Source of the DNA: Candidatus Niyogibacteria bacterium CG10_big_fil_rev_8_21_14_0_10_46_36
GTDB lineage: Bacteria; Patescibacteriota; Minisyncoccia; 1-14-0-10-42-19
Assembly (NCBI GenBank): GCA_002772995.1
Contig: PFCO01000001.1
Coordinates: 64,244 to 128,243, forward strand
Reading direction: 5' to 3'
Length of the DNA: 64,000 nt
In this document: one piece after another, positions 4,676 through 52,144 of the stretch
How the letters are laid out: each line of letters opens with the position of its first letter
How positions within the stretch are numbered: the first letter of the stretch is position 1
Program-made: the position numbers and the translations under genes
Notes under the pieces: model-generated
Told to the model about the DNA's origin: nothing
Database searches by the model: none
Seen by the model: the letters and a program-made list of their open reading frames with translations, nothing else

Positions 4676-4726
4676 AATAACCTCCTCCGTACTCTGTATT
4701 TTTTAATGCACAAATGTATAGTGCGA

Positions 4727-8991: not shown

Positions 8992-10461
8992 CTAAGGGGA
9001 ATCAAACAGCCGCCGCTCAATGATAATTTTATCGGTGTTATTTGGGAATACTCGCCACCATGACGGGAAAAACGAGATTGCCGCTTCTTCTATAGATGCG
9101 TACTGTGAAAATATACGCACCTGTTTTCGGTAATCAGCATGCGCCAAGGCGGAGGTAAGGCCGTCATAGTCAATATGCCACGCAACATGCGCAAGACCCT
9201 GAATGCGAAGCGTCATGGTTCCTGCGTCAAAATCAACATCTTCGGTACTATATGACAGGTCATGGACGTTTACGATATCAAATGCCTCCGGATCGGTATC
9301 ATCTTTCGCAAGATACTTATTGATTATCTCTGCTTCTATTGTTTCAAAAGAGACCGCAAGGCCGTCTAGCCGAAGCGACATGTTAAGCGTGAGCTGGTCT
9401 GCAGGCTTGCCAATATCGGCAGAAAAATCTTTCGCAATGGTTGTGATTCGGGATGCGCCTGCCGGGATCAAAAGACCCTCGGGAAGCTCGTTTGTCGCCT
9501 GCCGTTTCAGTTCTTCGGATAGCTGAGTCTGGAGCGATGAAGAAAGATCCGCCGCATCTTTTTCTGTTACTACGCGCGTTTTTCCTTTAAACCCGCCGGT
9601 CATGCCGGCAAATGAACGCGCATAGAATTTATCAAACCGCGGAGAGCCTTTAAATCCGGGGATAGTGAATTCGGCGGGACCAATATTATATTCTTCGCCC
9701 GGCTCGTCGGCGTACACTATCACTTCAATAGAGGACGCCTCTATCGTCCCATCTTTTACATTGGCGCCGGGCACAGTTACTTGTTCAGCAATACGGTATA
9801 TCTTTCCATCTTCCGTTTCAAACCGCGTACGCCTAACAAGCACCTGCGGGTCAGAGCTGAATTCGTTGTAGATGGTCAGCTTGCCCGAAGCCTTTTCCTC
9901 CACATCTTTTTCTCCCTGCGTTTCTGCCCTTCCCTCTATCGTTTCTTCAAGATGGACTGTCTCCACTCGCGCCCCCGTGCTCTCGCTTGCAGAAAACTTT
10001 ACCAAGGTATCAATATTAAAAAACTCCTGATGAGGCGTTACCGCAACCGTCACGCCGGACATCATATCAACAATAAGCAAAAACAGCGTGAACGCAAGAA
10101 CGCCGTATAAAATAAAAAATGGACGCGTACCATACCATCGGCGAGTGCCGTTTCCTTGCGGCTCTGAACGCTTCCGCTTTGTTGTTTTCGGCTTGAATGA
10201 TTTTTGTGTATGCGCAGGCTTCATCTTTGCAAAGAAAGAATCCGCCTTTACGGTATGCGCCTCTGTTTTAACCACGGATACCGGCGCAGAAAAATCTTCT
10301 TGTTTTTCTGCAAAAGAAACCTTTGGCTCTTCTTCTTTTTTCGGTGCTACCCGCCGTATCGGAATATGCGCGCCCGGTTTTGATACGCCCGAAGAAGCCG
10401 TTTTTTTAACGACCATATCGTGCATGAGGGGCTTTTTGTTGTTATGAGGAGATGGTGTCAT
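8992..10461 (-). CDS. Hypothetical bitopic membrane protein, 489 aa
   Basis: ~110-aa K/P-rich disordered N-terminal region, one TM helix (FFILYGVLAFTLFLLIV), large extracytoplasmic domain. No recognisable family. Confidence 0.5.
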   Translation of the reverse strand: MTPSPHNNKKPLMHDMVVKKTASSGVSKPGAHIPIRRVAPKKEEEPKVSFAEKQEDFSAPVSVVKTEAHTVKADSFFAKMKPAHTQKSFKPKTTKRKRSEPQGNGTRRWYGTRPFFILYGVLAFTLFLLIVDMMSGVTVAVTPHQEFFNIDTLVKFSASESTGARVETVHLEETIEGRAETQGEKDVEEKASGKLTIYNEFSSDPQVLVRRTRFETEDGKIYRIAEQVTVPGANVKDGTIEASSIEVIVYADEPGEEYNIGPAEFTIPGFKGSPRFDKFYARSFAGMTGGFKGKTRVVTEKDAADLSSSLQTQLSEELKRQATNELPEGLLIPAGASRITTIAKDFSADIGKPADQLTLNMSLRLDGLAVSFETIEAEIINKYLAKDDTDPEAFDIVNVHDLSYSTEDVDFDAGTMTLRIQGLAHVAWHIDYDGLTSALAHADYRKQVRIFSQYASIEEAAISFFPSWWRVFPNNTDKIIIERRLFDSP

Positions 10462-10493: not shown

Positions 10494-11711
10494 CTAATCT
10501 ATGCTATTTAATTCAACCGGGAGCGCCAGCATATACAAGAATGCCGCCTCCACTCCTCCAATAAACGCAGAGGTCGGCCCGTCAAACGCCGTGCGGAAAA
10601 ATGAAGGCGTAAAGAGATGAATATCAAACGGCTTGTCTTGAAGGACATATTCTTTGAACGATTCGTCAGAGAATGCTTTCACAAATCCGTCATATACTGC
10701 GCCTTCGCCCAAAAATGCAACCGTCTTGGGAAGTAACGCGCGGGAAGACGCATCTTTCAGCACCTTTTCCAAAAGAGATTTCCACTCTCCGATACCTTCT
10801 TCGATAATTGATGCTATCTTTTTTTCTTTTGACGCTTCAACTTTTCCCTGCGCCCACGCATGGAAAAGCGATATGGCATCTTTTGGCGGAACGCCTAAGG
10901 CGCTTGCAAGCCTGCGGATAATAAAGTGAAGCCCTTTGCCGAATGAAAATGTCTCTTCAATGATGCCCTTCCGAATAACCGTTACATCGGTTATCTCCCC
11001 TCCTATCTCTACCGCGAGCACCCCCGCGTCGATATTAAATGCCACCTTGCCTTCTTCATCTTCCCATAATTGTTTGAGTGTCCGAAAAAATATAAACGGA
11101 CTTGTATAAAATGTTATGTCTTCGGGAGCAAAATGAGTCTCAAGCACATGCGTCAAGTGGTCAATAAAACTCTTGAGACTCAAGCTCATATACATATCAA
11201 GCGATACCTCGTGCGCCTTTTTATTCAAAAAATCATTTACTTCGTAGCCATTCATGAGAATCTTCATAAATGACATTTCGATAATCGCGTAATCCTCTGC
11301 TGGAAAAGAAAACTGTTTGCGCGCATCCTGTATAAACCGCTCTTTTTCCTCATTAATATTCTCTTTTAAAAACGATTTTTCGGCTACGAACGGCTCTTTG
11401 TTGCTTATGTTTACAATCCGGGTCTGTGAAAAGTACCACGGCGAAGACAAAAGCACATGCACATCATGGATGCGCTCGCCATGCAAGACATCAGCAAAGT
11501 CTTTTTTCACCTCACCAAACTCGTGTTTTACAAATTGCTCAAGCGCCTTAAAGTCAGGCTGCGGCATGACGGAATGCGGACGCAAAACGCTTTTAATAAT
11601 ACGCGGCTTTGCTCCATTCCTGACGCCATAGATAATTGCGTTGACACTCCCCGTGCCTATCGCAATACCAATATTAATCTTTTCGTTATGAGATCGTCTG
11701 AGTGCAGACAT
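10494..11711 (-). CDS. Putative actin-fold (ASKHA) ATPase, PilM/FtsA-like, 405 aa
   Basis: Phosphate-1-like IGIAIGTGSVNAII near N-terminus and phosphate-2-like NIDAGVLAVEIGGEITDVTV; weak family assignment. Confidence 0.4.
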   Translation of the reverse strand: MSALRRSHNEKINIGIAIGTGSVNAIIYGVRNGAKPRIIKSVLRPHSVMPQPDFKALEQFVKHEFGEVKKDFADVLHGERIHDVHVLLSSPWYFSQTRIVNISNKEPFVAEKSFLKENINEEKERFIQDARKQFSFPAEDYAIIEMSFMKILMNGYEVNDFLNKKAHEVSLDMYMSLSLKSFIDHLTHVLETHFAPEDITFYTSPFIFFRTLKQLWEDEEGKVAFNIDAGVLAVEIGGEITDVTVIRKGIIEETFSFGKGLHFIIRRLASALGVPPKDAISLFHAWAQGKVEASKEKKIASIIEEGIGEWKSLLEKVLKDASSRALLPKTVAFLGEGAVYDGFVKAFSDESFKEYVLQDKPFDIHLFTPSFFRTAFDGPTSAFIGGVEAAFLYMLALPVELNSID

Positions 11712-11732: not shown

Positions 11733-13445
11733 TTAGGGCTCTATGATGGCCCGGATGCGCCGGACACCTGCTGAAGAAGATTCTTCTTTGGTGATAGTTA
11801 TCTTCCCTATCTCTCCGGTGTGCCGTACATGCGGCCCTCCGCAGAGTTCGCGGGAAAACACTTCGCCGTCTTTTACAACACTATAGACGGAAACGCGCTC
11901 CGGATATTTTTCTTTAAAGAATGCGAGCGCCCCGTTCCGTATTGCATCCTCATATGCCATCTCTTCCATTATAACATCAAAATCGCCCTCAACCACTTTG
12001 TTTGCCATGTCTTCTATCTGCTGGAGCTCATCCTGAGTAACCTTGCGCGGGAAGGTAAAATCAAAACGCGTGCGTTCCGCGGTGATATCGGAACCTGCCT
12101 GCTGTACATCGCCCCCCAATACCTTGCGGAGAGATGCCTGGAGCAGATGCGTTGCGGTGTGCAGGCGGGTTACTTTTTTGACCTCTTCGTCGTTTGCCGC
12201 CTTTAATTCTCCGGTGTTCAAAATAAGTCCGTGCCCGCCGAATTTTTTCTCTTGGCCTTTGCGCGATGCTTCTTGATGGCGCTCAAATTCCTTATCAAAG
12301 TTTTCTCGTTTTAATGCTGAGGCATGCTCTCCCCCCTCTTCTTTTATAATTTCGTACGGAATCCCGTAGCTTTCGTACAACATAAATGCGGACTCCGCAG
12401 TAATCATGTCTTGCTTGTGTAATTCCCGCAATCCTCGGCGAAGCGTTTTTGAAAATTTTTGGTATTCTTCATCAAACACGCCCTCGATAACAGCATAGGT
12501 AAGATTTTTGTAAAACGAGCTATACTCCCGAACAATATGCTCAAATGCTTTTTTGATGTTAATCCCCTTTTCGCCATACACAATGATGCGACGCATGAGC
12601 CTGCGCAGCACATACCCGGAATCTTTATTGGAAGGACGCACGCTATCTGCAATCAAAAACGCAACTCCACGGACATGATCAGCAAAAATTCTTTTTCTAC
12701 GGATATCCATTGCTTCAGGGAGAAGCGCCATAACAGACCTAAATAAATCCGTATCAAAAATAGTCGGCACGCCCTGCGAAACCATTGCGAGCCGTTCAAG
12801 CCCCATGCCTGTATCCACGCCGGGTGTTTCGAGCTTGCGAAGTGTTTTATCGGGGTTGCAATAAAATTCGTTAAACACAATATTCCAGACTTCTATATCT
12901 TTCCCTCCGGCGCTTTTTACATATATTTCCGTTGTCGGCCCGCATGGCCCCTCGCTCCCGGTGGGACCCCAGAAGTTATCTTCGCGGCCTAATTTTTTTA
13001 TGTTTGTAACGCCGAGCGCTTTCCATATCTCTTCAGACTCGGTGTCGGCGGGCACTTCGCTATCGCCCTCAAACACGCTTACATATTCTATCGGCAAGCC
13101 GATTTCTCTCGTAATAAAATCATATCCATATTGGATTGCCTCCTTTTTAAAATACCCGCCAAACGAAAAATTTCCGAGCATTTCAAAAAATGTCAGATGC
13201 GACTCGTCTCCCACTTCGTCAATATCAGAAGTACGAAACGATTTTTGCACAGAAGCCGTATTCTTGCTCCCAAAATCGCGCACCGGATCCGCCCTACCAA
13301 TAAAGTAAGGTTTAAATTGCTGCATCCCCGCGGTCGTTAACAACACCGACGGGTCATCAGGAATAAGAGAAGACGACGGGACGACCGCATGGCCCCGTTC
13401 CTTAAAAAAATCAAGAAATTTTTCACGGAGTTCGTTTGAATTCAT
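11733..13445 (-). CDS. alaS: Alanine--tRNA ligase, short form (570 aa) lacking the C-terminal C-Ala domain
   Basis: MNSNELREKFLDFFKERGHAVVPSSSLIPDDPSVLLTTAGMQQFKPYF (class II aminoacylation domain); HTATHLL and CGGPHV editing-domain motifs. Confidence 0.85.
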   Translation of the reverse strand: MNSNELREKFLDFFKERGHAVVPSSSLIPDDPSVLLTTAGMQQFKPYFIGRADPVRDFGSKNTASVQKSFRTSDIDEVGDESHLTFFEMLGNFSFGGYFKKEAIQYGYDFITREIGLPIEYVSVFEGDSEVPADTESEEIWKALGVTNIKKLGREDNFWGPTGSEGPCGPTTEIYVKSAGGKDIEVWNIVFNEFYCNPDKTLRKLETPGVDTGMGLERLAMVSQGVPTIFDTDLFRSVMALLPEAMDIRRKRIFADHVRGVAFLIADSVRPSNKDSGYVLRRLMRRIIVYGEKGINIKKAFEHIVREYSSFYKNLTYAVIEGVFDEEYQKFSKTLRRGLRELHKQDMITAESAFMLYESYGIPYEIIKEEGGEHASALKRENFDKEFERHQEASRKGQEKKFGGHGLILNTGELKAANDEEVKKVTRLHTATHLLQASLRKVLGGDVQQAGSDITAERTRFDFTFPRKVTQDELQQIEDMANKVVEGDFDVIMEEMAYEDAIRNGALAFFKEKYPERVSVYSVVKDGEVFSRELCGGPHVRHTGEIGKITITKEESSSAGVRRIRAIIEP

Positions 13446-17710: not shown

Positions 17711-18484
17711 TTACATAACCTGTATTGCATAATATTCGATAATAGAATTTGCAAGAAGTTTTTGGCACATTGACTCAACGCTCTTGCGGATGCTTGCCGA
17801 GCTTGTCCCGCGCATTTCAAGCTGTATGCGCTTTCCAATCCGTACGCGATTCACATGAGTAAACCCGAGCGTGTGAAGTCCCTTCATAATAGCAGCCCCT
17901 TCCGGATCAAGAATAGAATCCTTCGGCATGATTTCAACGACGACATGGAATGCCCGCTCGAGGACACTCCGTTCTTTTTCGGTCAACTTTGCGTAGGTGA
18001 CATACGCGTGGCGATGCATGTTCTCTTCATCAGGCAATGCTTCAATGCGGGATATTTCTTTCCACCATGAGGAATCAATATCCGGGAAGAACGCGTCTCC
18101 CTCGCACTCATAATCAATTTCGGTGATATAAAGCCGTTCGGTATATCTCAATCCCTCCTTATACACCACTGAACCGCCAATAATAAATATCTCTTCTGCG
18201 TGAGGAGATATTTGGGCATAAAAAAGCCCCTCACCTAATGAATGCGCGACAAGACACCCCGGAGCCGCGTATACATCACGCTTTGTGATAACAATATTAG
18301 TCCTTTGCGGAAGGGGCTTTTTTCCAATTGACTCAAATGTCTTTCGTCCCATGATAACCGGATGCCCTTTTGTCATACTCGCAAAGTACGCCATATCCTT
18401 CGGTAAATGCCAGGGCAACTTTCCCCTATGTCCGATAACATTGTTTTTTGCCATAGCCGCAATCATTGATACCGCCATAATCAT
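17711..18484 (-). CDS. folA: Dihydrofolate reductase fused to a C-terminal PurS domain, 257 aa
   Basis: N-terminal ~175 aa is DHFR (IGHRGKLPWHLPKDMAYFASMTKGHPVIMGRKTFESIG, IIGGSVVY). C-terminal ~80 aa matches PurS closely (ILDPEGAAIMKGLHTLGFTHVNRVRIGKRIQLEM...SMCQKLLANSIIEYYAIQV versus the PurS VLDPQG...LGF...VRIGK...MCEKLLANTVIEDY pattern). Confidence 0.85.
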   Translation of the reverse strand: MIMAVSMIAAMAKNNVIGHRGKLPWHLPKDMAYFASMTKGHPVIMGRKTFESIGKKPLPQRTNIVITKRDVYAAPGCLVAHSLGEGLFYAQISPHAEEIFIIGGSVVYKEGLRYTERLYITEIDYECEGDAFFPDIDSSWWKEISRIEALPDEENMHRHAYVTYAKLTEKERSVLERAFHVVVEIMPKDSILDPEGAAIMKGLHTLGFTHVNRVRIGKRIQLEMRGTSSASIRKSVESMCQKLLANSIIEYYAIQVM

Positions 18485-26611: not shown

Positions 26612-27433
26612 TTAGAAAATTATCCGCGAGCCTATCTTCTCCCCCAAGAGAAGCCGTTTAAGATTGCCTTGCGTAAAAATATTAAAGACATGCGCAGGCT
26701 TCTTGAAACGGTTTAAAGAAAGCATCACTTCTTCAACTATCTCAAGCTCCTTATTCTTAACATCACGATAATCTATCTCCGGAAAGAAATGTGCGTCTTT
26801 ATGAAGTACCGGATCGCTATCGTAAATACCATCCACCTTAGTCCCCTTCAGTATGGCATCTGCCTTAATATCAACCGCGAGAAGCATCGCCGTTGAATCG
26901 GTAGTGAAGTTGGGACGCCCGCTTCCCCCGACCTGTATCACTATACGCCCTTTTTCAAGGTGGCGACGCGCCCGCTTATGGAAATACGGCTCCGCAATAT
27001 TTTTTGCCTCTATCGCACTCATAAGCCGCGGCGTTAAGCCGTACCCCTCCAACACATCGCCGAGCAGCACTCCGTTCATTATTGTCGCAAGCATGCCGAT
27101 ATAATCAGCGCTTGCATGGTCAAGGAAACGATCGTTCTCGCGTGAACGCCCTCTTAGTATATTGCCGCCGCCGAGCACAACCCCAATCTCTACCCCTAAG
27201 TCATGCGCTTCTTTTATTTCTTGCGCCGCAATTTCTGCGCGCGTTTCGCTTAAATTGCTTTCATCGTCACGGAATATCTCGCCTGTTAGCTTCAAAATAA
27301 TCCGTTTGTATATCGGCTCGCTTTTCAATATGCTCCCTCCTTGTGTAAAAATATCTCTGCCAACGATATGAAAAACCAACTCACTTGTCAAATAAAAACC
27401 CCGCACACAGCGAGGCTTTTTATTTGGGTCCAA
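26612..27433 (-). CDS. pyrH: UMP kinase
   Basis: KRIILKLTGEIF, GVVLGGGNILRG. Confidence 0.9.
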   Translation of the reverse strand: MDPNKKPRCVRGFYLTSELVFHIVGRDIFTQGGSILKSEPIYKRIILKLTGEIFRDDESNLSETRAEIAAQEIKEAHDLGVEIGVVLGGGNILRGRSRENDRFLDHASADYIGMLATIMNGVLLGDVLEGYGLTPRLMSAIEAKNIAEPYFHKRARRHLEKGRIVIQVGGSGRPNFTTDSTAMLLAVDIKADAILKGTKVDGIYDSDPVLHKDAHFFPEIDYRDVKNKELEIVEEVMLSLNRFKKPAHVFNIFTQGNLKRLLLGEKIGSRIIF

Positions 27434-27440
27434 ATGTATG

Positions 27441-28967
27441 TTATCGCTTTACTAGCGTAACTTTTACCGAAACGGTCGGACTAACATTATCTCGAAAACG
27501 CATATTTGCGGGTAAAATAAGCCGTGAAGAGAATGTTTTTGTCGCATCGAGCCCGTCTACGCTGATAGGCTGAGTAATAATGAATTCAGGGGGCACTATG
27601 CCCTCAGGGACTAACACGCCTACGCGGTCAGGCGTTATGGTTATTGAACTTATACGGTAACCGCTTGCTACAGTACCTTGGGTGTCTGTGCGCACCGAAA
27701 CATCAAAAGAATTGAATTTTTTCACCTGGACGGTTATCTGCGAAGGAACTACCTCAACCACCGAAAAGCTCGCTGGATGGATAATCATATCTTCGCTTAA
27801 CACAATAACATTACGCCCCTCCGAAAAATTTTTTGCGTCGACTGCAATCTCTATAAGCCGTTCGTCAATGCGCTCAAACGCAAGCTGGCCACGGCTTACA
27901 AAAGTAACAGTGACTTCGCGCGGTTCGGACTCCTGAATAAAGAGACGCTCCGGCAAATTACGGTACACGATGGGCAACGAGAAACTCCGCTGAACCGTTT
28001 CTGCCTGGAAAGAAAAGAAGAACCATATAACAAGCGCGCTCCCCACTGCAAGCAATTTAAGATACGAGTTGTGTTTTATAAAATCAGTCCACATAGAACC
28101 TACCGGACCTTGCGCCATATCTTTATAAAATTTTTTCAAAGATGATTCGAGTTCCTCAACGCTGCCAAGCTCCTTTAGTTTTCCGTTATGCGCAACGGAT
28201 ATCGTTCCGCGTTCCTCTGAAACAGATACCGCCAGAGCGTCCGTATGTTCGGCAATACCCAATGCTGCACTATGACGAGTCCCCCGCTTTCCTATCTGCT
28301 TAAAATTTGACGAGAGCGGCAAGTGTGCGCCAAGCCGTGCAATACGGTTTTTGCTAATAATTACCGCACCATCATGCCCGATAGAATGCGGATCAAAAAT
28401 GCTCTCTAAAAGCTCTTCGGAAATAAGACCGTCAATGCGCTTCCCTCCATCAAGAAAACGCTCGATATTTTCATTCCCCGGGAATACAATGAGCGCTCCC
28501 CGTTTTTCTTTTGCAAGCTTTGCCACGGCCTGCAATATTTCATTAACATCAAATGGGAAGATGGAGGTTTCCTGTTTGAGCTTAAACTGCCGCGTATTCC
28601 AGAAAGAAATGAACTCAAAAAATCGCCGGAGCTCCTGATTGAAAATAATGACAAGCACAACAATAAACACCGCAAAGAATGATTGCAGCACCAGCGAAGT
28701 GAGATACAGATGGAACGCCTGGGCAAGCGAATAAATGATAACCAAAATACCGATGCCGGCAAGAATTGGCCAAGAGTGCGTCCGCTTAAATAAGATGATT
28801 ATAATGTACAAAAAAAGCGCGATTATGAGCACGTCAAAAACATCAACAATACGGACATTGCTAAAAAATCCGTCTATTGAATACAAAGTAGCGAGTAATT
28901 CCTGCATATATGTATCATAACAAAAAGCCTGAAAGAGAAAAAATCCGCTCTTCACGGATTCTCCCAA
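27441..28967 (-). CDS. cdaA: Diadenylate cyclase CdaA fused to CdaR/YbbR-domain regulator, 508 aa
   Basis: Three N-terminal TM helices; DAC-domain motifs HDGAVIIS, GTRHSAALG, SEERGTIS; then a fourth TM segment and ~230 aa resembling YbbR-type beta-rich repeats. Confidence 0.8.
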   Translation of the reverse strand: MGESVKSGFFLFQAFCYDTYMQELLATLYSIDGFFSNVRIVDVFDVLIIALFLYIIIILFKRTHSWPILAGIGILVIIYSLAQAFHLYLTSLVLQSFFAVFIVVLVIIFNQELRRFFEFISFWNTRQFKLKQETSIFPFDVNEILQAVAKLAKEKRGALIVFPGNENIERFLDGGKRIDGLISEELLESIFDPHSIGHDGAVIISKNRIARLGAHLPLSSNFKQIGKRGTRHSAALGIAEHTDALAVSVSEERGTISVAHNGKLKELGSVEELESSLKKFYKDMAQGPVGSMWTDFIKHNSYLKLLAVGSALVIWFFFSFQAETVQRSFSLPIVYRNLPERLFIQESEPREVTVTFVSRGQLAFERIDERLIEIAVDAKNFSEGRNVIVLSEDMIIHPASFSVVEVVPSQITVQVKKFNSFDVSVRTDTQGTVASGYRISSITITPDRVGVLVPEGIVPPEFIITQPISVDGLDATKTFSSRLILPANMRFRDNVSPTVSVKVTLVKR

Positions 28968-28990
28968 AACCCTTCCGATGTTTATCTCCC

Positions 28991-29377
28991 TTATGGAGTA
29001 GCAAGCTGGCCGTCTATCTGTTCGAGCATTGCCTTTAGGTCGACATCAGCTTTTATAATGTACCCCCTTGCTCCCAGCGCCAGAGCTTCCGCAATTTTTT
29101 CCATATCTGACATCTGAGATAAAATAATCACCGACAAAGCACTCAGCTCCGGGTCTTGTTTCATCTTTTGCATAACGCCAACACCGGACAAATCCGGCAT
29201 CATGAGGTCAAGCAGAATGAGGTCGGGCTTTAGCTCCTTCGCTTTCGTGATACCTTTCTCCCCACTTGACGCAAGCTCTACCTGATAGGATGCATTGTGT
29301 TCTTTTAGAGCATCTGCAAGAACACGGCTCAGCGCTATATCGTCATCTATAATAAGAATTTTCTTTTGATACTCCAT
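28991..29377 (-). CDS. Stand-alone response-regulator receiver protein (CheY-like), 128 aa
   Basis: DDD acidic pocket (IIDDDIA), phospho-acceptor Asp in LILLDLMMPD, Lys in GARGYIIKAD. Confidence 0.85.
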   Translation of the reverse strand: MEYQKKILIIDDDIALSRVLADALKEHNASYQVELASSGEKGITKAKELKPDLILLDLMMPDLSGVGVMQKMKQDPELSALSVIILSQMSDMEKIAEALALGARGYIIKADVDLKAMLEQIDGQLATP

Positions 29378-29387
29378 AATGGCATTA

Positions 29388-29753
29388 TTACGTTACTATT
29401 TTTTTGATACGCTCGGTCAGCGATTCTAAATTAAAATTCGCTTTTACTAAATAATCCTCAGCACCTATACGCTTCGCTTTTTCAATATGATCCCCCTCTC
29501 CGAACTGTGAAAGCATAAACACAGGAATGTCCTTTGTTTTGGGATCTTCTTTAATATGCGTTAAAAGCTCAAGACCATTCATCGGCTGCATCATAAAATC
29601 AAGAACAACTACATCAACATGCGTTTTTGCCAGATACTCAAGCGCCGCGGCACCACTTGTGCGCGTCACCACCTCAAAACCGCGTCCCTCAAACCAATCG
29701 GAGAGCACAGCTAAAAATGTTTTGTCATCATCAACGAGAAGAATTTTCGCCAT
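29388..29753 (-). CDS. Stand-alone response-regulator receiver protein, 121 aa
   Basis: LLVDDDK, VVVLDFMMQP, GAEDYLVKAN. Confidence 0.85.
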   Translation of the reverse strand: MAKILLVDDDKTFLAVLSDWFEGRGFEVVTRTSGAAALEYLAKTHVDVVVLDFMMQPMNGLELLTHIKEDPKTKDIPVFMLSQFGEGDHIEKAKRIGAEDYLVKANFNLESLTERIKKIVT

Positions 29754-29756
29754 AGA

Positions 29757-30155
29757 CTATGATTTCTTTTCTCCCTCCGAAAGAATCGTTTCTATCTGGC
29801 TTATCATGCTCTCGAGACTAAAATCAGATTTTACCAGATACCCCTTAATACCGAGGCTCATTGTTTCAGATATCTTTTCGTAATCCGAAAGCTGGGAAAC
29901 AATAAGCACCGCCGTTGCTTTTATATCTTCGTGCTCCCGAAGCTTCTTTAAAAAATCTTCTCCCCGCATTTTGGGAAGTACGAGATCAAGCAAAATAAGG
30001 TCGGGTTTTTCTTGAGTCGCTTTTGTGAGCCCCTCTTCGCCGTCAACAGCAGTTATGATTTGGGTGAACCCATGTTGTGACAATCCGTCTTCAAGCACCT
30101 TTACAAAATTTGCATCATCTTCTACGATAAGGATCCTTTTTGTGTTCTTGTCCAT
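29757..30155 (-). CDS. Stand-alone response-regulator receiver protein, 132 aa
   Basis: LIVEDDA, LILLDLVLP, GIKGYLVKSD. Confidence 0.85.
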   Translation of the reverse strand: MDKNTKRILIVEDDANFVKVLEDGLSQHGFTQIITAVDGEEGLTKATQEKPDLILLDLVLPKMRGEDFLKKLREHEDIKATAVLIVSQLSDYEKISETMSLGIKGYLVKSDFSLESMISQIETILSEGEKKS

Positions 30156-30175
30156 ATCCCATCACTATATCATTA

Positions 30176-31048
30176 TTAAAACGGAACGGTAAAGAAAAAT
30201 GTCGTCCCTTTATTTTCTTCGGAGCCCGCTCCAATAGTCCCTCCTGTATGGCGCACTAAATGGCGCGCTATCAAAAGGCTGATGCCATGTGCTCTTTTTA
30301 TTTTTTCAAGAAATGTCTCTCCCATTCCCTCATATTTCTTAAAAAGCAGCGGGAGGGTCTCCGTGGGTATGCCGACATCGCTATGCGTGATCACAACAAC
30401 CACTGCGTCGGCGTCTTCTCCTCCCTCGCTATACGTCGGCGGATACCATGTTATATTGTTGCGCTTCGCCTCCTTTGTTATGTCACCTCCCTTCGTGTGA
30501 CGAAACACATTTAGGACAATCTTCCCTCCTGGTTCATTAAACTTTATCGCGTTGGAAAGAAGAATGTTGATTGTGTCTGACACAACCCTTCCATCAAATG
30601 CAATGGAGGCAGGGACTTCTTTCCCAAAAGACATACGCACAGTAAGTCCTGCGTTCTTTATCGCAAGCGAAAAAAATGAAAGACGATCTTTGATAAGCTG
30701 TGTAATATCGCCATCTATTTTTTTGACCACCAATGTCCCCGCACCCAGCTTTGCCGCGTCAGAAATATTATTTATCAATACAAGCATTGCTAATGCGCTG
30801 TCGTGGATAAGCCCGGTGTACTGTGTCTTGCGCTCCTCTGTCATGGTACGAGAAGAAAGCATCAGCTCGCTCATCTTCTGTACATTGTCCAGTGGTCCCC
30901 TCAAATCATGCACCAAGAGAGATACGAGCTCCTGAAGAACTTTTTTGCTTCTTTCAGAAACAGCGCTTGCTTTTCTGCGCCAATACCATGCAGATATAAC
31001 AAGAAGAATGATGCATGCTATGAGAATGCCGTATACGAAAAAATCCAT
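30176..31048 (-). CDS. Sensor histidine kinase (single TM, HisKA + HATPase_c), 290 aa
   Basis: H-box LVHDLRGPL, N-box ILLSNAIKFNEPGG, G-boxes; one N-terminal TM helix and no sizeable sensor domain. Confidence 0.85.
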   Translation of the reverse strand: MDFFVYGILIACIILLVISAWYWRRKASAVSERSKKVLQELVSLLVHDLRGPLDNVQKMSELMLSSRTMTEERKTQYTGLIHDSALAMLVLINNISDAAKLGAGTLVVKKIDGDITQLIKDRLSFFSLAIKNAGLTVRMSFGKEVPASIAFDGRVVSDTINILLSNAIKFNEPGGKIVLNVFRHTKGGDITKEAKRNNITWYPPTYSEGGEDADAVVVVITHSDVGIPTETLPLLFKKYEGMGETFLEKIKRAHGISLLIARHLVRHTGGTIGAGSEENKGTTFFFTVPF

Positions 31049-31093
31049 GCGTTTAGTATAGCACTTTTTGTATCTAAGGAATGTGGAAAAACA

Positions 31094-31127
31094 AACAAAC
31101 CGCCGGTACGGCGGTTTGTTTGTTTTA
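31094..31127. terminator. Intrinsic terminator downstream of the tRNA pair
   Basis: aaacaaaccgccg-gtac-ggcggtttgtttgtttt. Confidence 0.65.
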
Positions 31128-31131
31128 TGAG

Positions 31132-31206
31132 CGGGCGCGACCGGATTTGAACCGGCGATCTTCTCCGTGACAGGGAGACGTGTTAACCGGGCTACACCAC
31201 GCGCCC
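31132..31206 (-). tRNA. tRNA-Asp (anticodon GTC)
   Basis: Manual fold: acceptor GGGCGCG/CGCGCCC, D-arm, anticodon stem TCTCC/GGAGA with loop cTGTCac, T-arm GCCGG-TTCAAAT-CCGGT. CCA not encoded. Confidence 0.85.
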
Positions 31207-31234
31207 ATATATAGATGCAAGCTATGCACCATTG

Positions 31235-31308
31235 TGCCGGGGGTGGGATTCGAACCCACGACCTAGGGCTTATGAGTCCCTCGCTCTAACCAACTGAGCC
31301 ACCCCGAC
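31235..31308 (-). tRNA. tRNA with CAT anticodon (elongator Met or Ile2-lysidine type)
   Basis: Acceptor GTCGGGG/CCCCGGC (G1-C72 paired, so not initiator), T-arm GTGGG-TTCGAAT-CCCAC, anticodon loop cTCATaa. A31:G39 mismatch in the anticodon stem. Confidence 0.8.
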
Positions 31309-32347: not shown

Positions 32348-33880
32348 TTATTCATATTCAATCGTCGCAGGCGGCTTTTGAGTGATATCGTAGAGTACCC
32401 GGTTTACTCCTTTTACTTCCCGGACTATGCGGTTTGAAATGCGCTCAAGCAAACTGTGGTTCATTTTATACCAGTCGGCAGTCATCCCATCTACAGAGTG
32501 CACCGCGCGGAGCGCAATAATGTGCTCATATGTCCGCGCATCTCCCATTACTCCCACTGTGCGTAATGGCAAAAGAACTGCAAACGCCTGCCATATCTTT
32601 CCGTATTCCCCCGCCCTCCGCAATTCTTCTATATAAATAGCGTCTGCTTCACGCACCATATGCAACCGCTCTTCGGTAACTTCTCCCACAACGCGGATAG
32701 AAAGACCGGGCCCCGGAAACGGGTGGCGCCAAAGCACTTTTTTGGGCAAGCGTAACTCTTCTCCGAGCCTCCGGACTTCATCCTTATACAGATCGGCAAG
32801 CGGTTCGAGGATGTGGAACCCAAACCGTTCCGGCAATGTGAGATTGTGGTGGCTTTTTATTTTTTCTGCCACATGCGAACCATACGCGGACTCTATCCTG
32901 TCCGGATAAATGGTGCCCTGCGCTAGAAACCGTACGGGGTATTTTTTAAAATCATATGCAATCATCCGTTCAAATACATGGATAAATGTATGCCCGATAA
33001 TCTTCCTTTTCTTTTCCGGATCCTCTATTCCCTTCAGCCGTTCAAGAAAATTCTTACGCGCATCCACGGTACGTATGTCATGGAGGCCTTGCGCGGTGAT
33101 TGCTTTTCCCACCGCCCCGACTTCGTCTTTGCGCAATAATCCATTATCAACAAATACGCCGTGTAGTTGTCTGCCGATTGCACGATGAAGCAGCGTTGCC
33201 GCAACAAGAGAATCAACACCCCCTGAAAGCGCGATGACAACATGCGCGTCCCCCACCATTTCTCGCATAGAAGCAATAATCTCATCTTTCAATATGGGCA
33301 TACTCCAATTCTTCTTGGCGCCGCATACAGAAAAGACAAAATTGGCAATAATGTCCTTTCCCCGTTTTGTATACGCGACTTCGGGATGAAACTGCACTCC
33401 AAACCACGGTTTTTTCTCATGAGCAAACGCAGCATGAGCGCAGGCTTCAGTTGAAGCAATCGCCTGGAACCCCTGCGGAAGCATATACACATAATCTCCA
33501 TGAGAAAACCACACAGGTTCTTTTTTTGTGAGCCCTTTAAAGAGCGGGTTGCGCGAGGTACATGATATTTTTTCTTTTCCGTATTCGCGGACTTCTCCCG
33601 TCCGCACAACCCCCCCGAAAAATTTTGCCATGACCTGCGCACCGTAACAAATGCCGAATACCGGTATACCTAATTCAAAAATCTCTTTTTGCGGACGCGG
33701 ATATCCGTTCTCTAGCACAGACCGCGGACCGCCCGAAAGAATAATACCCACAGGATGGAATGCCCGTATCTCTTCTATCGATGCCTGAAAATGCAAAATC
33801 TCGGCACGCACGCCGAGATCCCGTATTCTCCTTGCTATAAGATGAGCGAATTGTGAACCGAAGTTCAATATTACAATCAT
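32348..33880 (-). CDS. guaA: GMP synthase (glutamine-hydrolysing)
   Basis: GATase N-term (FGICYGAQ), ATP-PPase SGGVDS motif, C-terminal dimerisation domain. Confidence 0.95.
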   Translation of the reverse strand: MIVILNFGSQFAHLIARRIRDLGVRAEILHFQASIEEIRAFHPVGIILSGGPRSVLENGYPRPQKEIFELGIPVFGICYGAQVMAKFFGGVVRTGEVREYGKEKISCTSRNPLFKGLTKKEPVWFSHGDYVYMLPQGFQAIASTEACAHAAFAHEKKPWFGVQFHPEVAYTKRGKDIIANFVFSVCGAKKNWSMPILKDEIIASMREMVGDAHVVIALSGGVDSLVAATLLHRAIGRQLHGVFVDNGLLRKDEVGAVGKAITAQGLHDIRTVDARKNFLERLKGIEDPEKKRKIIGHTFIHVFERMIAYDFKKYPVRFLAQGTIYPDRIESAYGSHVAEKIKSHHNLTLPERFGFHILEPLADLYKDEVRRLGEELRLPKKVLWRHPFPGPGLSIRVVGEVTEERLHMVREADAIYIEELRRAGEYGKIWQAFAVLLPLRTVGVMGDARTYEHIIALRAVHSVDGMTADWYKMNHSLLERISNRIVREVKGVNRVLYDITQKPPATIEYE

Positions 33881-33910
33881 ACCTATAGTATATCATTCGC
33901 CCCCCTTTCA

Positions 33911-36117: not shown

Positions 36118-38796
36118 TTATTTGCCATGGCACTTTTTATACTTCTTGCCCGAACCACAGGGACAGAGGTCATTCCGTCCTACTTTTTCCCCTTCCGGCG
36201 TTTTAGGTGCTGACTGCGCTTTCGGTGCGGCATGCACGTGCGTGCTTTCCATTGAAAGCGGGCTTTGAGCCGAAGCATGCGACGCATGCATTTCTGTCTG
36301 CTTAATAGGCGGATTTGAACCAACACGGAATACAATATGAGAAAGATGCGCCCGGATTGCCGCTTGCATTTCTTTGAACATGCGCGAGCCTTCATTTTTA
36401 TACTCAATAAGCGGGTCCCGCTGGCCATACGCACGAAGACGGACAGAGGAGCGCATATACTCCATCGCCTCCAAATGATTCGCCCAGCTAAGATCAACTA
36501 TCTGGAGGGTGTACGCTCGCAATAGATTCGCGAACGCCTGCTCCCCGAGCCCTGTTTTTCGATTATCAAACATGCCACGCCACACATTGTGAACATACAT
36601 ATGCATTTCGTTGCGTATCTCTTCAGCACCCCCCTTCCCTTTTTTTATCTCAAGCAAGCGGCTATGCACATCAGACGCAACACCGAGACGCGCGTGAAGA
36701 TTTTCGTATATTTCTTCTATATTCCATTCATCAATAAAATTATGCTGGGTATGAAACGCGAGTATGCTGTCTATTTCTTCTTCTATCATCTCTCCTGCTT
36801 TTTCAAATATTTTTTCCGGCTCCGAAAAAAGAAAATCCTTGCGTGTTGTATACAATGACATGCGTTGCCTGTTTAATACATCATCATATTCGAGCAAGTG
36901 CTTGCGCGCATCAAAATTAAATCCTTCTATTTTCTCTTGCGCGGACGAAAGTGCGCGCGACACCATATTATGTTCAATAGGAACATCTTCGGGTATGCCG
37001 AAGCGCCCCATCATATTTTTTATACGGTCAGGACCAAAGATGCGCATCAGGTCATCTTCAAGCGAAACATAAAATTGCGTCTCCCCCGGGTCGCCTTGGC
37101 GTCCCGCACGGCCCCGAAGCTGGTTATCAATGCGGCGTGCTTCGTGCCGTTCGGTTCCTAATACAAAAAGTCCTCCGAGTTCCTTTACCCGTTTCGCTTC
37201 TTCAACGCTTTGCGGGTTGCCCCCCAAAATAATGTCTACACCGCGTCCTGCCATATTAGTTGCAACAGTAACCGCGCCGGGGCGGCCTGCCTGCGCAATA
37301 ACTTGCGCTTCATGTTCGTGATTCTTTGCGTTCAGCATCTCGTGTGGAATGCCTTCTTTTTTTAATAACGCTGAGAGATACTCATTCTTTTCTATAGATG
37401 TAGTCCCCAGCAATATCGGCTGACCCTTTGTGTGCCGTTCTTTAATCTCACGAACAACCGCCTTCCACTTTCCTCCGGTCGTCTGGAAAATCCTGTCTGG
37501 AAGATCTTTTCTCATAAGCTGCTTGTTTGTGGGAATAATAAGAACATCCAAATCATACACCCTGCTAAATTCCTCCGCTGATGTTGCTGCGGTCCCTGTC
37601 ATGCCGGAAAGTTTGTCATACATCCGAAATAAATTCTGGAATGTAATAGATGCCATGGTGCGGGATTCGCGCTGGACGACAACCCCTTCTTTTGCTTCAA
37701 CCGCCTGATGCAGCCCGTCCGACCACCTACGCCCTGGCATGAGCCTCCCGGTAAACTCATCCACAATAATAATGTCTCCGTCTTTAACTACATAGTCTTT
37801 ATCTTTATGGAAAAGCGCTTGCGCGCGGAGTGCCTGCTCTAGATGATGCACATATCGGATACCTCCCTCAGAATACATATCTTGAATGCCTAAAAGCTTC
37901 TCAACGCGGTCGATGCCTTCTTCCGTTATAGTTACCGCTTTCATTTTTTCATCAATATTGTAGTCCCGCCCTTCTTCTAATTGCGGGGTAAGGCGCGAAA
38001 ATGTCCGGTACAGTGCCCCTGATTCTTGGTCGGGTGCGGAAATAATAAGCGGCGTACGCGCCTCATCAATTAAAATGGAATCTATTTCATCGATAACCGC
38101 AAAAAATGGCTCACGCTGAACTAATGCGTCAGGAGTTGATGCAAGATTATCCCGCAAATAATCAAATCCAAATTCATTATTTGTTCCGTAGGTAATATCT
38201 GCCTCGTATGCTTCTTTGCGCGATACCGGACGCCAATGGTTGAGACGGTCATCTCCGTGGTCATGCTGGTCAGTATAAGCCGGGTCATATACCGCGGAAA
38301 AGTCGTGCGTAATAACACCGACCGAAACGCCAAGTGTATGGTACACGGGAGCCATCCATCCGCCTCCAACACGGGCAAGATATTCGTTCGGGGTTATCAA
38401 GTGGCATCCTTTGCCGAGCAAGCTATTTAAATAGAGAGGGAGTGTCGCAACAAGCGTCTTTCCTTCACCGGTCCGCATCTCAGCAATCCCTCCCTGATGC
38501 AACACCATGCCTCCGATAAGCTGCACGTCAAAATGGCGCAGTCCTATGGAACGACGAGACGCTTCCCGCACCAATGCAAACGCCTCGGGAAGTATTTCAT
38601 TCAGCATGTTTTTCTGCTCGTCAAAAGAAGCGCCTTCTTGCAGGCGCTTCTTTAACTGTTGTGTCCGTTCTTTAAGAGCGTCGTCGGAATATGATTGTAT
38701 TTTTTCTTCCGCATTGTTGATGTCTGGAATAGCTGCGGACAATTTTTCTATTGCGCGCTTATGCGGATCGCCAAATATTTTTTTAAATAGAGACAT
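36118..38796 (-). CDS. secA: Protein translocase ATPase SecA, 892 aa
   Basis: DEAD-like motor motifs (GEGKTLVATLP, DEIDSILIDEARTPLIIS), C-terminal zinc-binding tail CPCGSGKKYKKCHGK. Confidence 0.97.
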   Translation of the reverse strand: MSLFKKIFGDPHKRAIEKLSAAIPDINNAEEKIQSYSDDALKERTQQLKKRLQEGASFDEQKNMLNEILPEAFALVREASRRSIGLRHFDVQLIGGMVLHQGGIAEMRTGEGKTLVATLPLYLNSLLGKGCHLITPNEYLARVGGGWMAPVYHTLGVSVGVITHDFSAVYDPAYTDQHDHGDDRLNHWRPVSRKEAYEADITYGTNNEFGFDYLRDNLASTPDALVQREPFFAVIDEIDSILIDEARTPLIISAPDQESGALYRTFSRLTPQLEEGRDYNIDEKMKAVTITEEGIDRVEKLLGIQDMYSEGGIRYVHHLEQALRAQALFHKDKDYVVKDGDIIIVDEFTGRLMPGRRWSDGLHQAVEAKEGVVVQRESRTMASITFQNLFRMYDKLSGMTGTAATSAEEFSRVYDLDVLIIPTNKQLMRKDLPDRIFQTTGGKWKAVVREIKERHTKGQPILLGTTSIEKNEYLSALLKKEGIPHEMLNAKNHEHEAQVIAQAGRPGAVTVATNMAGRGVDIILGGNPQSVEEAKRVKELGGLFVLGTERHEARRIDNQLRGRAGRQGDPGETQFYVSLEDDLMRIFGPDRIKNMMGRFGIPEDVPIEHNMVSRALSSAQEKIEGFNFDARKHLLEYDDVLNRQRMSLYTTRKDFLFSEPEKIFEKAGEMIEEEIDSILAFHTQHNFIDEWNIEEIYENLHARLGVASDVHSRLLEIKKGKGGAEEIRNEMHMYVHNVWRGMFDNRKTGLGEQAFANLLRAYTLQIVDLSWANHLEAMEYMRSSVRLRAYGQRDPLIEYKNEGSRMFKEMQAAIRAHLSHIVFRVGSNPPIKQTEMHASHASAQSPLSMESTHVHAAPKAQSAPKTPEGEKVGRNDLCPCGSGKKYKKCHGK

Positions 38797-38799
38797 GTA

Positions 38800-39174
38800 T
38801 TATTGATTACTTTTGAGCACTTCTTTTGCTTGTCTCGCGCCGCGTCGCGAACGAGATTCTTTCTTCCCCTTAAAGCTTTTGATACGCCGCTCAATTCCGT
38901 CTTTTGCTTCGTTCACCGCCGCCTCAAGCGATGCCGCAACCGCGCTCATGCGGAGAGGAAGGCGTCTCCCAGGAACCACGACTTGTGCTTCACAAAACCA
39001 CTGCGTGCTGGCATTGCGCACACTTCGCTTGCGTATCTCTATATCGCACTGGGCGTTCATTTTTTTGTCTATTTTGGGAAGCAGCCGCTTAATAGGAACA
39101 GCAAGCTTAGTATTGACTAACACTTCAATAGATTTTGTAATTTCAAGATTTTTGCTATATATGCGTATTTTCAT
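38800..39174 (-). CDS. hpf: Ribosome hibernation promoting factor (HPF/RaiA family)
   Basis: MKIRIYSKNLEITKSIEVLVNTKL... beta-alpha-beta-beta-beta-alpha pattern of the HPF/YfiA family; stop 3 nt from secA start. Confidence 0.7.
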   Translation of the reverse strand: MKIRIYSKNLEITKSIEVLVNTKLAVPIKRLLPKIDKKMNAQCDIEIRKRSVRNASTQWFCEAQVVVPGRRLPLRMSAVAASLEAAVNEAKDGIERRIKSFKGKKESRSRRGARQAKEVLKSNQ

Positions 39175-39235
39175 AGGGTCAGTATATCAAAAAAGAAGCG
39201 CCCCGTAAATCAGGACGCTTCTCGAGAGATCAAAA

Positions 39236-50706: not shown

Positions 50707-51387
50707 CTAATATTCCACATCATCCTTATACGCGATAACTTTTACATGAGAAACGCCCGCGCGCCCGGAAAGCTCCCGCACAAATTCATCAATACGAAGG
50801 GTGTCAATAAACTTTACATGATACACCATCTCGGACGCAGTACCTCCCTCTCGTGCGTTAATGTTCAAAAGCATGCTATTTTTTATGTATTTCTGAAACA
50901 ACTCCTCAAATGAGTGGGACCCGCCGTCCTTACTGTCCACAATAAACGAAAGCAGATGTTCGTGCGAATGGAATGAACCGAAATTAATCTTTGTAAGAAA
51001 AAAGATTATCGCTAATATCAGCGCTGTCGAAACAAGCGCAATCGCGTAATTTCCGGTACCAACTGCCATACCCACACCCAACGCAAAGAAAATAAATCCT
51101 ACATCTTTCGTATCTTTGACCGGCGTCCTGAACCGGATAATGGAAAAAGCGCCCAAGAGAGCAAATGCCCGCGCAACGCTGCTCCCGATGACCATCATCA
51201 CCATTGCAACGATAACCGATACCAATACAAGCGTGAATACAAAGGACTGCGAATACGACACCCCGCGATGGGTTTTTTTATACACATACGCAATCAAAAA
51301 AGACAACCCAAATGTGAGCAGGATATTGAACGCAATATACGGAATGGAGAAAGACGCCCCCGCGCCTTCCGAAAATAAACTTTCCAT
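50707..51387 (-). CDS. DUF4956-family membrane protein, 226 aa
   Basis: 4 TM helices then soluble C-terminal domain; pattern recalled as matching DUF4956 proteins that accompany VTC-domain genes. Confidence 0.6.
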   Translation of the reverse strand: MESLFSEGAGASFSIPYIAFNILLTFGLSFLIAYVYKKTHRGVSYSQSFVFTLVLVSVIVAMVMMVIGSSVARAFALLGAFSIIRFRTPVKDTKDVGFIFFALGVGMAVGTGNYAIALVSTALILAIIFFLTKINFGSFHSHEHLLSFIVDSKDGGSHSFEELFQKYIKNSMLLNINAREGGTASEMVYHVKFIDTLRIDEFVRELSGRAGVSHVKVIAYKDDVEY

Positions 51388-51392
51388 ATGGA

Positions 51393-52139
51393 TTATATAA
51401 TACCGTCCCGTAAAGAAAATGCAATAGAGTCTTTCCGGGATGCATCAAGGCTCTCACAATACTTAGAATACGACATGCGGTGCAAATTGAATTCCCGGAT
51501 AACCTCATGCAGATAGAACGGGAGCTTGCCGTTGAATTTTACCTCCATAACGGTCTTGTCTTGCAGCACCGGAACAAAATCCTCTCCTTCATATATAAGC
51601 GAATTGTGTTTTCGTGCGCGTATGTTCCGGTCAAAGGTTATCCGCACATTTTCATTTAACGAGCCGACGAACGGTTCCCGCTCATACACAACCAGCACCT
51701 CAGGCGCAATAGACCGCAATAACTTCTCCGACAAGAATTCTTGGATAACGTTGTCTTTTTTTTCGGAAAGGGTGTCTTCTTCCCGGCCGGCGAATAGCGC
51801 ATACTCCTTTTTTGAAACATATATTCTATCTTTTAAGATAATAGCGTCATCTTTCCGCTTTATCTCAAAGAATATGTTCTCTGAGAAGACGCCGTTTTGC
51901 TTGTACGCCCGCCATCGTATCTTTTTTCGCTTTCTTACGCCGTCTTTTTTTTCATGGTAATAGAAATAGCGAGGACTATCATAATACAAGCTCCATATTT
52001 CATATGACCCGGTTTGTGATTCTGCAGCACGCGGATCACGAGACATAAATGGCTTAATGCGCTTCTTTATCAAAAATTCTTGCTGCGGAGAGAGCAGATA
52101 TTTAAATTCAAATCGCTGAAAATGAAGCTTGGGAAGCAT
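51393..52139 (-). CDS. VTC-domain protein (polyphosphate-polymerase-like triphosphate tunnel), 248 aa
   Basis: HFQRFEFKYLL start and spaced R/K/E residues typical of the bacterial VTC (CYTH-like) domain. Confidence 0.65.
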   Translation of the reverse strand: MLPKLHFQRFEFKYLLSPQQEFLIKKRIKPFMSRDPRAAESQTGSYEIWSLYYDSPRYFYYHEKKDGVRKRKKIRWRAYKQNGVFSENIFFEIKRKDDAIILKDRIYVSKKEYALFAGREEDTLSEKKDNVIQEFLSEKLLRSIAPEVLVVYEREPFVGSLNENVRITFDRNIRARKHNSLIYEGEDFVPVLQDKTVMEVKFNGKLPFYLHEVIREFNLHRMSYSKYCESLDASRKDSIAFSLRDGII

Positions 52140-52144
52140 AATGG

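Follow-up and report, generated by a model that had tools for sequence, protein, structure and literature searches.

A lineage-restricted predicted operon of a degenerate histidine kinase, receiver-only proteins and a fused CdaA-YbbR cyclase in Candidatus Niyogibacteria

In this work we present the analysis of a gene block located in a 64-kb stretch of DNA from a metagenome-assembled genome of Candidatus Niyogibacteria (CG10_big_fil_rev_8_21), which is referred to as the window and whose positions are used as coordinates throughout. The block consists of the genes for a protein with histidine kinase (HK) domains, three proteins built of a receiver (REC) domain only (R1, R2 and R3), and the cyclic di-AMP (c-di-AMP) synthase CdaA fused to a YbbR/CdaR-like region, in that order; pyrH comes after it, and all are on the minus strand. 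The gaps between HK, R1, R2, R3 and cdaA are 20, 3, 10 and 83 nt long, the last one ending at the conserved ATG of cdaA. A CorA gene is located upstream, followed by tRNA-Met and tRNA-Asp, a terminator and then HK. The HK gene together with the REC genes is called the cassette below, and loci of other genomes carry labels such as L004. The features, in the direction of transcription, are as follows.

31131-31308, minus strand: tRNA-Met and tRNA-Asp (ARAGORN and Rfam), immediately upstream of the cassette
31087-31126, minus strand: strong intrinsic terminator after tRNA-Asp, an 18-bp perfect stem with a T-run, upstream boundary of the unit
31055-31060, minus strand: TATACT -10 box, leaderless-type promoter, 6 nt before the HK ATG
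30176-31048, minus strand: HK, 290 aa, Pfam HisKA (PF00512) and HATPase_c (PF02518)
29757-30155, minus strand: R1 receiver, 132 aa, PF00072 as the sole match (E = 1.6e-21)
29388-29753, minus strand: R2 receiver, 121 aa, PF00072 as the sole match (E = 2.1e-25)
28991-29377, minus strand: R3 receiver, 128 aa, PF00072 as the sole match (E = 2.7e-22)
28935-28964, minus strand: weak hairpin with a T-run directly after R3, -14.5 kcal/mol, z = -1.9
28914-28922, minus strand: TGTTATGAT, extended -10 box, candidate internal leaderless promoter, 6 nt before the cdaA ATG
27441-28907, minus strand: CdaA fused to a YbbR/CdaR-like region, 488 aa, with DAC, CdaA_N and a weak YbbR match
27390-27424, minus strand: strong intrinsic terminator after cdaA, downstream boundary of the unit
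26612-27328, minus strand: pyrH (UMP kinase), TIGR02075 E = 9e-68, GGAGGG followed by a TTG start at 27328

The upstream terminator folds to -26.5 kcal/mol (z = -7.5) and the downstream one to -18.9 kcal/mol (z = -5.2), and for each of them 0 of 200 shuffled sequences folded equally well. Folding of the window revealed only the weak hairpin inside the block and strong terminators at its two ends, so that the stretch from HK to cdaA looks like one terminator-bounded unit, i.e. a predicted operon. The pyrH gene, named as directly downstream and co-directional in the original prediction, does occupy the same strand; it is a separate transcription unit outside the HK-to-cdaA unit, because a strong terminator and a promoter of its own (TTGACA-17-TATCGT at 27363-27391, 10 of 12 matches in the promoter scan) stand between it and cdaA. 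In L004 pyrH is not present between cdaA and pheS.

The hairpin between R3 and cdaA was considered as a full terminator speaking against co-transcription and rejected in this role, as its folding is weak (z = -1.9 to +0.4 across the loci that bear it, versus -5.2 and -7.5). Since it is far weaker than the flanking terminators it is treated as a possible attenuator only, and it could act as an attenuator or a partial terminator. The Rfam scan of the window and four related loci returned tRNAs only, with no ydaO/c-di-AMP riboswitch among the matches.

The layout of TATACT, 6-7 nt and ATG recurs on the minus strand of the window, at 31046-31060 (HK), 33878-33892, 38262-38277 and 39172-39186. It precedes HK, guaA and two other gene starts, with 6 matches found against 2.3 expected in the window, and suggests that leaderless or near-leaderless transcripts are frequent in this genome; it is present upstream of HK in L084 and L085 as well. 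An insertion of the cassette between the cdaA promoter and cdaA was also considered, as the HK promoter resembles the cdaA promoter of L083, and the argument was dropped, because the same layout precedes guaA and other genes and the likeness is therefore generic.

Linkage of the cassette to cdaA was followed across genomes by a synteny scan, in which a profile of the fused cyclase was run against 185,579 species genomes, 80 loci were kept and phmmer was used with HK, the RECs and the neighbouring genes. Orthologs of the HK form only 8 clusters in a collection of 5.8 billion proteins, at 52% identity or more, after which identity drops to 31%; a scan of JGI metagenomes with the HK profile gave generic kinases at 25-28% only and no new cassette members. 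All six HK-ortholog loci with context (the window, L087/L003, L084, L085, L086 and L004) show the order HK-R1-R2(-R3)-cdaA, with HK identity falling to 51-52% and CdaA identity to 64-68%. Three receivers are encoded in the window, L087/L003, L084 and L085, the crown sub-clade, and two in L086 and L004, where R3 is missing. The last REC gene of L004 overlaps cdaA by 4 nt (ATGA), and a strong terminator follows cdaA there; in L086 the corresponding gap is 18 nt. As these two loci are no closer to each other (HK 51%, CdaA 66% identity) than to the crown group, they form a grade, and the tightly packed HK-R1-R2-cdaA is therefore regarded as the basal state, to which R3, the weak hairpin and the internal leaderless promoter would have been added later. 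The block is intact in spite of rearranged flanks: 5 kb of extra genes separate the tRNAs from HK in L087, and L004 is devoid of pyrH.

Judged by this gene order, the locus is a predicted lineage-restricted signalling operon, in which a cassette of the type found in the candidate phyla radiation (CPR), HK with REC-only genes, stands upstream of a cdaA(-ybbR)-(pyrH)-pheS-gyrB row. The arrangement is confined to one narrow sub-clade of Candidatus Niyogibacteria, and is young and lineage-specific; in L083, the closest cassette-less relative, cdaA itself heads the conserved gene row. The HK-REC-REC-REC-cdaA synteny, which had been proposed as a database search, does exist outside the window in this restricted form, namely in a narrow clade, with the third REC missing in two loci and with 78 cdaA loci lacking the cassette.

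The HK (COU47_00560) carries one N-terminal transmembrane (TM) helix at residues ~3-22, HisKA at 38-104 (E = 4.9e-7) and HATPase_c at 160-289. The domain scan thus confirmed the minimal protein with one TM helix and no sensor domain that had been described from the sequence. Only ~2 residues are placed outside the membrane, and the TM helix passes almost straight into the DHp helix. As for its being a histidine kinase, the H box (SLLVH47DLRGPLDN, with His invariant in 8 orthologs) and the N box (SNAIKFN, invariant among orthologs and aligned with NAxKF of canonical kinases) are kept, whereas the G1 and G2 ATP-binding boxes are degenerate. In G1 the canonical D-T-G-I-G aligns with H-S-D-V-G, both by HMMER and by MAFFT, which gives His in place of the adenine-binding Asp and Asp in place of the first Gly; in G2 A-H-G-I-S-L stands against the canonical G-T-G-L-G-L, and only one of three Gly is kept. 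The Niyogibacteria HKs read (T/S)H(S/N)DxGIP at G1 and AHG(I/S)SL at G2, and the altered G2 sequence is conserved in all HK orthologs. Degenerate G1 was found in 5/5 cassette HKs of the alignment and in 0/6 HKs from loci outside the clade (outsiders), all six of which have canonical G1 (DTGIG) and G2 (GTGLGL). Among the linked HKs, all five that were aligned combine loss of the sensor with degenerate G1/G2, in agreement with the consensus of the eight orthologs. Position H+4 of the phosphatase motif is Gly, not Thr/Asn/Ser, in most HK orthologs.

Changes of this kind in G1/G2 usually abolish ATP binding or autokinase activity in HATPase_c kinases. The HK is possibly a pseudokinase, a phosphatase or a His-phosphotransferase, and its ATP binding may be lost; because G1/G2 are degenerate while His and Asn are kept, the role of a phosphatase or of a Spo0B/ChpT-like phosphotransferase seems more likely than that of a classic sensor kinase. 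With 32-37% identity (E = 1e-45 to 1e-50), the HKs of L089, L093 and L094 are the closest relatives outside the clade; the four nearest outsiders, all from these loci, are 405-674 aa long, with PAS/GAF matches recorded for some. We also noticed that a ~25-aa insert in the CA domain (H.KG.DI..EA...GI.WF/YPP.Y.E, residues ~183-215), common to the window HK and the longer canonical HKs of L089, L093 and L094, defines a CPR kinase subfamily.

The three consecutive REC-only proteins were recovered as predicted, each matching PF00072 and nothing else (E from 1e-21 to 1e-25); the receiver domain spans the whole protein and leaves no output domain (121-132 aa). The full set of phospho-acceptor residues, with the acidic pair, the acceptor Asp, Thr/Ser, the aromatic switch residue and Lys (D13, D14, D57, S87, Y106 and K109), is invariant in 13 orthologous sequences of R1, R2 and R3. 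The view that the three are tandem paralogs had to be abandoned: identity within the cassette is 31-43% (R1-R2 31%, R2-R3 31%, R1-R3 43%), versus 46-54% to outsiders (R1 48-54%, R2 50-52%, R3 46-48%), and in a neighbour-joining tree of 127 REC-only proteins R1, R2 and R3 form no clade, their common ancestor taking in all 127. Each being nearer to relatives from other CPR genomes than to its cassette mates, the receivers are, on these comparisons, not recent tandem duplicates, and R1 and R2 are distinct subfamilies. The nearest R1 outsider is L089_REC (54%), placed downstream of a GAF/PAS HK, and R2 outsiders at 50-52% are located downstream of HKs of the window-HK subfamily in L093 and L094. 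R1 (orthologs 70-77% identical) and R2 (67-79%) are present in all six loci. The C-terminal signature that was taken as distinctive of the three is found in outsiders too, in L089_REC (SQYSDMEKIS...LGIKGYLVKAD) and L090_REC (LGIKGYLVKSEYSLEEIVEKI). The ~125-aa REC-only family as a whole is very large: of 8000 candidates scored, at least 4649 match at E <= 1e-10.

Two or three output-less receivers with intact acceptor sites, next to an HK that has degenerate G1/G2 and keeps its His, could be a pure phosphate sink or buffer, in which the receivers compete for phosphoryl groups, the HK serves as their phosphatase and the module tunes the output of another two-component pathway with no effector of its own. 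The multi-CheY sinks of Sinorhizobium (CheY1/CheY2) and Rhodobacter are the precedent and likewise have several single-domain receivers per kinase. They differ in that no CheA, chemotaxis genes or flagellar motor accompany the present receivers, and in that R1 and R2 are distant subfamilies and not close paralogs. R1 and R2 being ancient, distinct and each conserved at 67-79%, distinct specific partners are suggested over redundant sinks; the Gly at H+4 also speaks against a phosphatase, and we consider a sink extremely unlikely.

The cyclase has three TM helices, a DAC domain (PF02457, E = 5e-37) and a fourth TM helix, followed by an extracytoplasmic part of about two YbbR-like repeats, with CdaA_N (PF19293) matched at E = 1e-7; against TIGR00159 it scores 185.6 bits, just below the cut-off of 188.8. 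Of the catalytic motifs of DAC, HDGA is present. The second motif reads RHS in the window and RH[SA] across the fused CdaA-YbbR family, versus the textbook RHR. The YbbR (PF07949) match of the window protein reaches 20.6 bits and remains below the cut-off of 22.3, and 21 of 30 relatives match PF07949 at E <= 0.01 (best 1.7e-10). When a profile of the C-terminal half was compared with PDB, the best match was the YbbR protein 2l3u (E = 0.0016), and Listeria CdaR (Lmo2119) matched weakly (E = 0.14). The YbbR identity of the C-terminal half is thus supported by sequence at the family level only. The fused CdaA-CdaR gene predicted downstream of the receivers is borne out as far as CdaA_N, DAC and the fourth TM helix are concerned, with a sub-threshold YbbR match in the window protein itself, and the fusion is a common one. 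Of 8000 candidates scored, at least 1100 are homologs of the fused cyclase at E <= 1e-10, and among the 120 listed nearly all measure ~470-515 aa and have DAC and CdaA_N, with or without YbbR. Their sources include many CPR lineages as well as Omnitrophota, Syntrophales, Planctomycetota, Abyssubacteria and others. By these matches the CdaA-YbbR fusion is a widespread architecture and no novelty of this locus.

In Firmicutes (Bacillus, Listeria, Staphylococcus) the cyclase of the cdaA-cdaR-glmM operon is under the control of proteins encoded together with it, which act via protein contact (PMC12974146, discussion; PMC6368335). The present protein resembles that system in its three N-terminal TM helices followed by DAC and in YbbR-like repeats placed outside the membrane. 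Here, in contrast, CdaA and CdaR form a single chain, in which the CdaR part is C-terminal and has only about two YbbR-like repeats, there is no glmM in the window, and the co-encoded proteins are a HisKA protein and receiver-only proteins.

Within the terminator-bounded unit no extracytoplasmic domain other than the YbbR part is encoded, and the HK of the unit has its TM helix joined almost directly to DHp. This raises a reverse wiring, in which the HisKA protein, itself sensor-less and with a single TM helix, would have the CdaA-CdaR fusion as its accessory sensor by way of contacts between TM helices, resembling LiaF-LiaS, BceAB-BceS or YycHI-WalK, and the receivers would pass the signal on to targets elsewhere. 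An intramembrane-sensing kinase and its accessory membrane protein are usually encoded together, and LiaFSR, BceRS-AB and WalK-YycHI share with the locus a small kinase with no extracytoplasmic domain and a co-encoded membrane protein able to sense. The window HK differs from them in having one TM helix instead of two, degenerate ATP boxes and no DNA-binding response regulator. The proposal has pure analogy as its basis, in at least 78 other lineages the fused cyclase does without an HK, and the degenerate ATP-binding boxes speak against a classic kinase output, so we regard it as very unlikely.

The relatives of the cassette outside the clade have the following layouts.

L089: GAF/PAS-HK then REC; not beside cdaA
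L096: PAS-HK then REC, then a convergent ATP synthase operon; not beside cdaA
L094: HK-REC-REC, then a convergent gene; not beside cdaA
L093: REC-HK-REC ... HK-REC; not beside cdaA
L090: minimal HK-REC-PilB...PilC; not beside cdaA
L092: PilB-REC-PilT-PilC-pilins; not beside cdaA

These cassettes adjoin pilus genes, unrelated genes or a contig end. They resemble the cassette of the window in using the same REC-only family (40-54% identity, including pilus-linked PilH/PilG-like receivers) and in the succession of an HK and one to three output-less receivers, and four share the insert-bearing HK subfamily. The differences are the longer HKs of the four closest, canonical G1/G2 in all six, embedding in pilB/pilT/pilC loci in 2/6 and the fact that none is beside cdaA.

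A number of observations weigh against a signalling operon dedicated to c-di-AMP, and they are considered together here. The layouts of the six outsider loci indicate that an HK with one to three REC-only genes is a generic, standard CPR cassette; 0/6 are next to cdaA, L089, L093, L094 and L096 being self-contained and L090 and L092 lying in type IV pilus loci. The cassette is absent from 78 of the 80 cdaA-ybbR loci and only the two closest relatives have it, therefore the wiring is no general feature of CdaA-CdaR fusions; the 78 other loci (<=50% identity) have no HK or REC beside cdaA. In L083, whose CdaA is 57% identical, TatD and a small open reading frame (ORF) are followed by cdaA-pyrH-pheS. 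Within the crown group (window, L087, L084, L085) R3 is followed by a hairpin with a T-run, which keeps its position while the stems differ (AATCCG/CGGATT, ATCCGC/GCGGAT, CCGCC/GGCGG), and TGnTAnnAT precedes the ATG of cdaA by 6 nt in the window, L084 and L085, a spacing equal to the leaderless layout of other genes in the window genome; the crown group appears, from these predicted elements, to have partly uncoupled the transcription of cdaA. In so narrow a clade shared descent may by itself account for the conserved order, and CPR gene rows often mix unrelated housekeeping genes, of which cdaA-pyrH-pheS-gyrB is an example.

Taken at face value, such points would make the cassette independent and its adjacency historical: a generic CPR module with targets elsewhere (e.g. 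type IV pilus ATPases or other kinases), which landed by the tRNA pair upstream of cdaA and stayed there through a young clade and a compact genome, co-transcribed with cdaA to no regulatory end. The closest REC relatives in 6/6 outsider loci, the membership of the HKs of L089, L093 and L094 in the subfamily of the window HK, the 78 of 80 cassette-less loci and the hairpin with a putative promoter before cdaA in the three-REC loci all agree with it. So do the tRNA genes upstream of HK, present in the window, in L087 (the tRNA-Met/tRNA-Asp pair ~5 kb upstream of HK, 4530-4680) and in L084 (a partial tRNA, 1-47), which are compatible with cassette acquisition at a tRNA-proximal site. Against an independent module stand the adjacency to cdaA of all HK orthologs with context despite rearranged flanks, the basal cdaA that is translationally coupled to R2 or located 18 nt away from it, with no space for a promoter of its own, and the loss of the sensor and canonical ATP motifs in exactly the cdaA-linked lineage. 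Within the window there is, furthermore, no pilus gene, and no other HK, REC or DNA-binding output either. We hold historical adjacency to be a serious possibility, somewhat under even odds. The association of cassette and cdaA at the level of transcription is, in our estimate, real and conserved with a probability of about 0.75.

Some minor features of the loci compared may be added. By eye, an opposite-strand tRNA-like sequence is seen upstream of HK in L086 (~1-50), where ARAGORN reported none. In L087 the TGnTAnnAT element is parted from cdaA by an insert of ~190 nt (12100-12290) with a long inverted repeat (CCCCGTATGGCAACATCGAA...TTCGATGTAGCCTAACGGGG), placed between the REC3 hairpin/promoter and cdaA. 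The insert extends the REC3-cdaA gap to 240 nt, the 275-nt stretch around it has a folding energy of -76.9 kcal/mol, and Rfam gives no match for the insert; it may be either similar to a miniature inverted-repeat transposable element or a structured leader. REC genes occur within 8 kb of cdaA in about 10% of loci, which was judged compatible with background. In L021 (7953-10347), from an unrelated CPR-like genome labelled 'uncultured Gammaproteobacteria', the fused cdaA-ybbR is followed after 560 nt, on the same strand, by a 127-aa REC-only gene. No other REC comes within 1 kb in the 78 loci, and the position of this one is probably due to chance.

Whether the association also carries function is less certain, and for any functional tie of the cassette to c-di-AMP synthesis, for which gene order is the sole basis, we would give nearly, but not quite, an even chance. 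Such a tie is favoured because the association with cdaA is exclusive and invariant among the HK orthologs seen, because basal members are translationally coupled, because the loss of sensor and ATP motifs coincides with the cdaA linkage, and because CdaA-CdaR supplies the only extracytoplasmic domain of the unit. The sequence of events would start with insertion of the cassette upstream of cdaA. The membrane-anchored HisKA protein would then not be a classic sensor kinase but would serve the two or three receivers as a phosphatase or as a phosphotransfer hub of the Spo0B/ChpT kind, and the receivers would work via protein-protein contact. The membrane enzyme CdaA-CdaR would be the most likely partner of HK and receivers, either as the target, with cyclase activity responding to phosphorylated REC, or as the extracytoplasmic sensing partner of the sensor-less HK. 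Direct regulation of CdaA by the receivers, as put forward in the original prediction, is in our opinion unlikely. It is rather improbable, too, that c-di-AMP synthesis of this clade is gated post-translationally by a dedicated phosphorelay, in which a membrane-anchored, ATP-blind HisKA phosphotransferase or phosphatase serves two or three CheY-like receivers contacting the cyclase.

Elements of such a scheme are known from other systems. The relays Spo0F-Spo0B-Spo0A and CckA-ChpT-CtrA/CpdR likewise combine receiver-only proteins with a DHp/CA-like protein that keeps His and has lost canonical ATP motifs, and CpdR is a single-domain receiver acting through protein contact; the window HK differs in its kept N box and its membrane anchor, and no upstream kinase or terminal output regulator was identified for it. 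Conceptually, PleD, WspR and Rrp1 (REC-GGDEF) are similar in that phosphorylation of a receiver sets the rate of cyclic-dinucleotide synthesis. They make c-di-GMP by a cyclase fused to the receiver, whereas c-di-AMP and separate receivers are proposed here. Rrp1 is cited in PMC12974146.

In the literature searched, which did not cover the DAC architecture survey of Galperin 2023, no two-component or response-regulator control of CdaA or of diadenylate cyclases was found, and no receiver-controlled precedent for DAC enzymes. To that extent the proposed wiring would be new, as had been claimed from the sequence; the cassette type and the fusion are each common. Beyond the GlmM/CdaR paradigm of Firmicutes, the setting of CdaA activity is largely open. 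Should the dedicated phosphorelay prove true, a diadenylate cyclase would for the first time be seen to receive two-component input, and a minimal genome would offer a case of a kinase that has become a relay hub. CPR genomes hold many cassettes of HK and receiver-only proteins, and one locked to an identifiable enzyme is a rare handle on output-less receivers; the degenerate kinase is a candidate for a natural kinase-to-phosphotransferase or kinase-to-phosphatase transition. The practical weight is moderate, as the matter concerns gene order in a narrow clade of uncultivated organisms.

Three further regions of the window, all on the minus strand, drew our attention. The adjacent ORFs at 8992-10461 and 10494-11711 (489 and 405 aa) are practically devoid of Pfam matches, apart from a weak one of the first to the GlxA beta-barrel. 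At 50707-54844 a DUF4956/MgtC-like membrane protein, a VTC-domain protein and an 899-aa protein with CotH-kinase and beta-helix parts are encoded, within a larger envelope-glycan region (NeuB, UDP-GlcNAc 2-epimerase, Wzy_C, glycerophosphotransferases). At 17711-18484 dihydrofolate reductase (complete domain, E = 6e-56) and PurS (E = 1.5e-26) are joined in one ORF of 257 aa, an unusual fusion that adjoins the genes for thymidylate synthase and thymidylate kinase.

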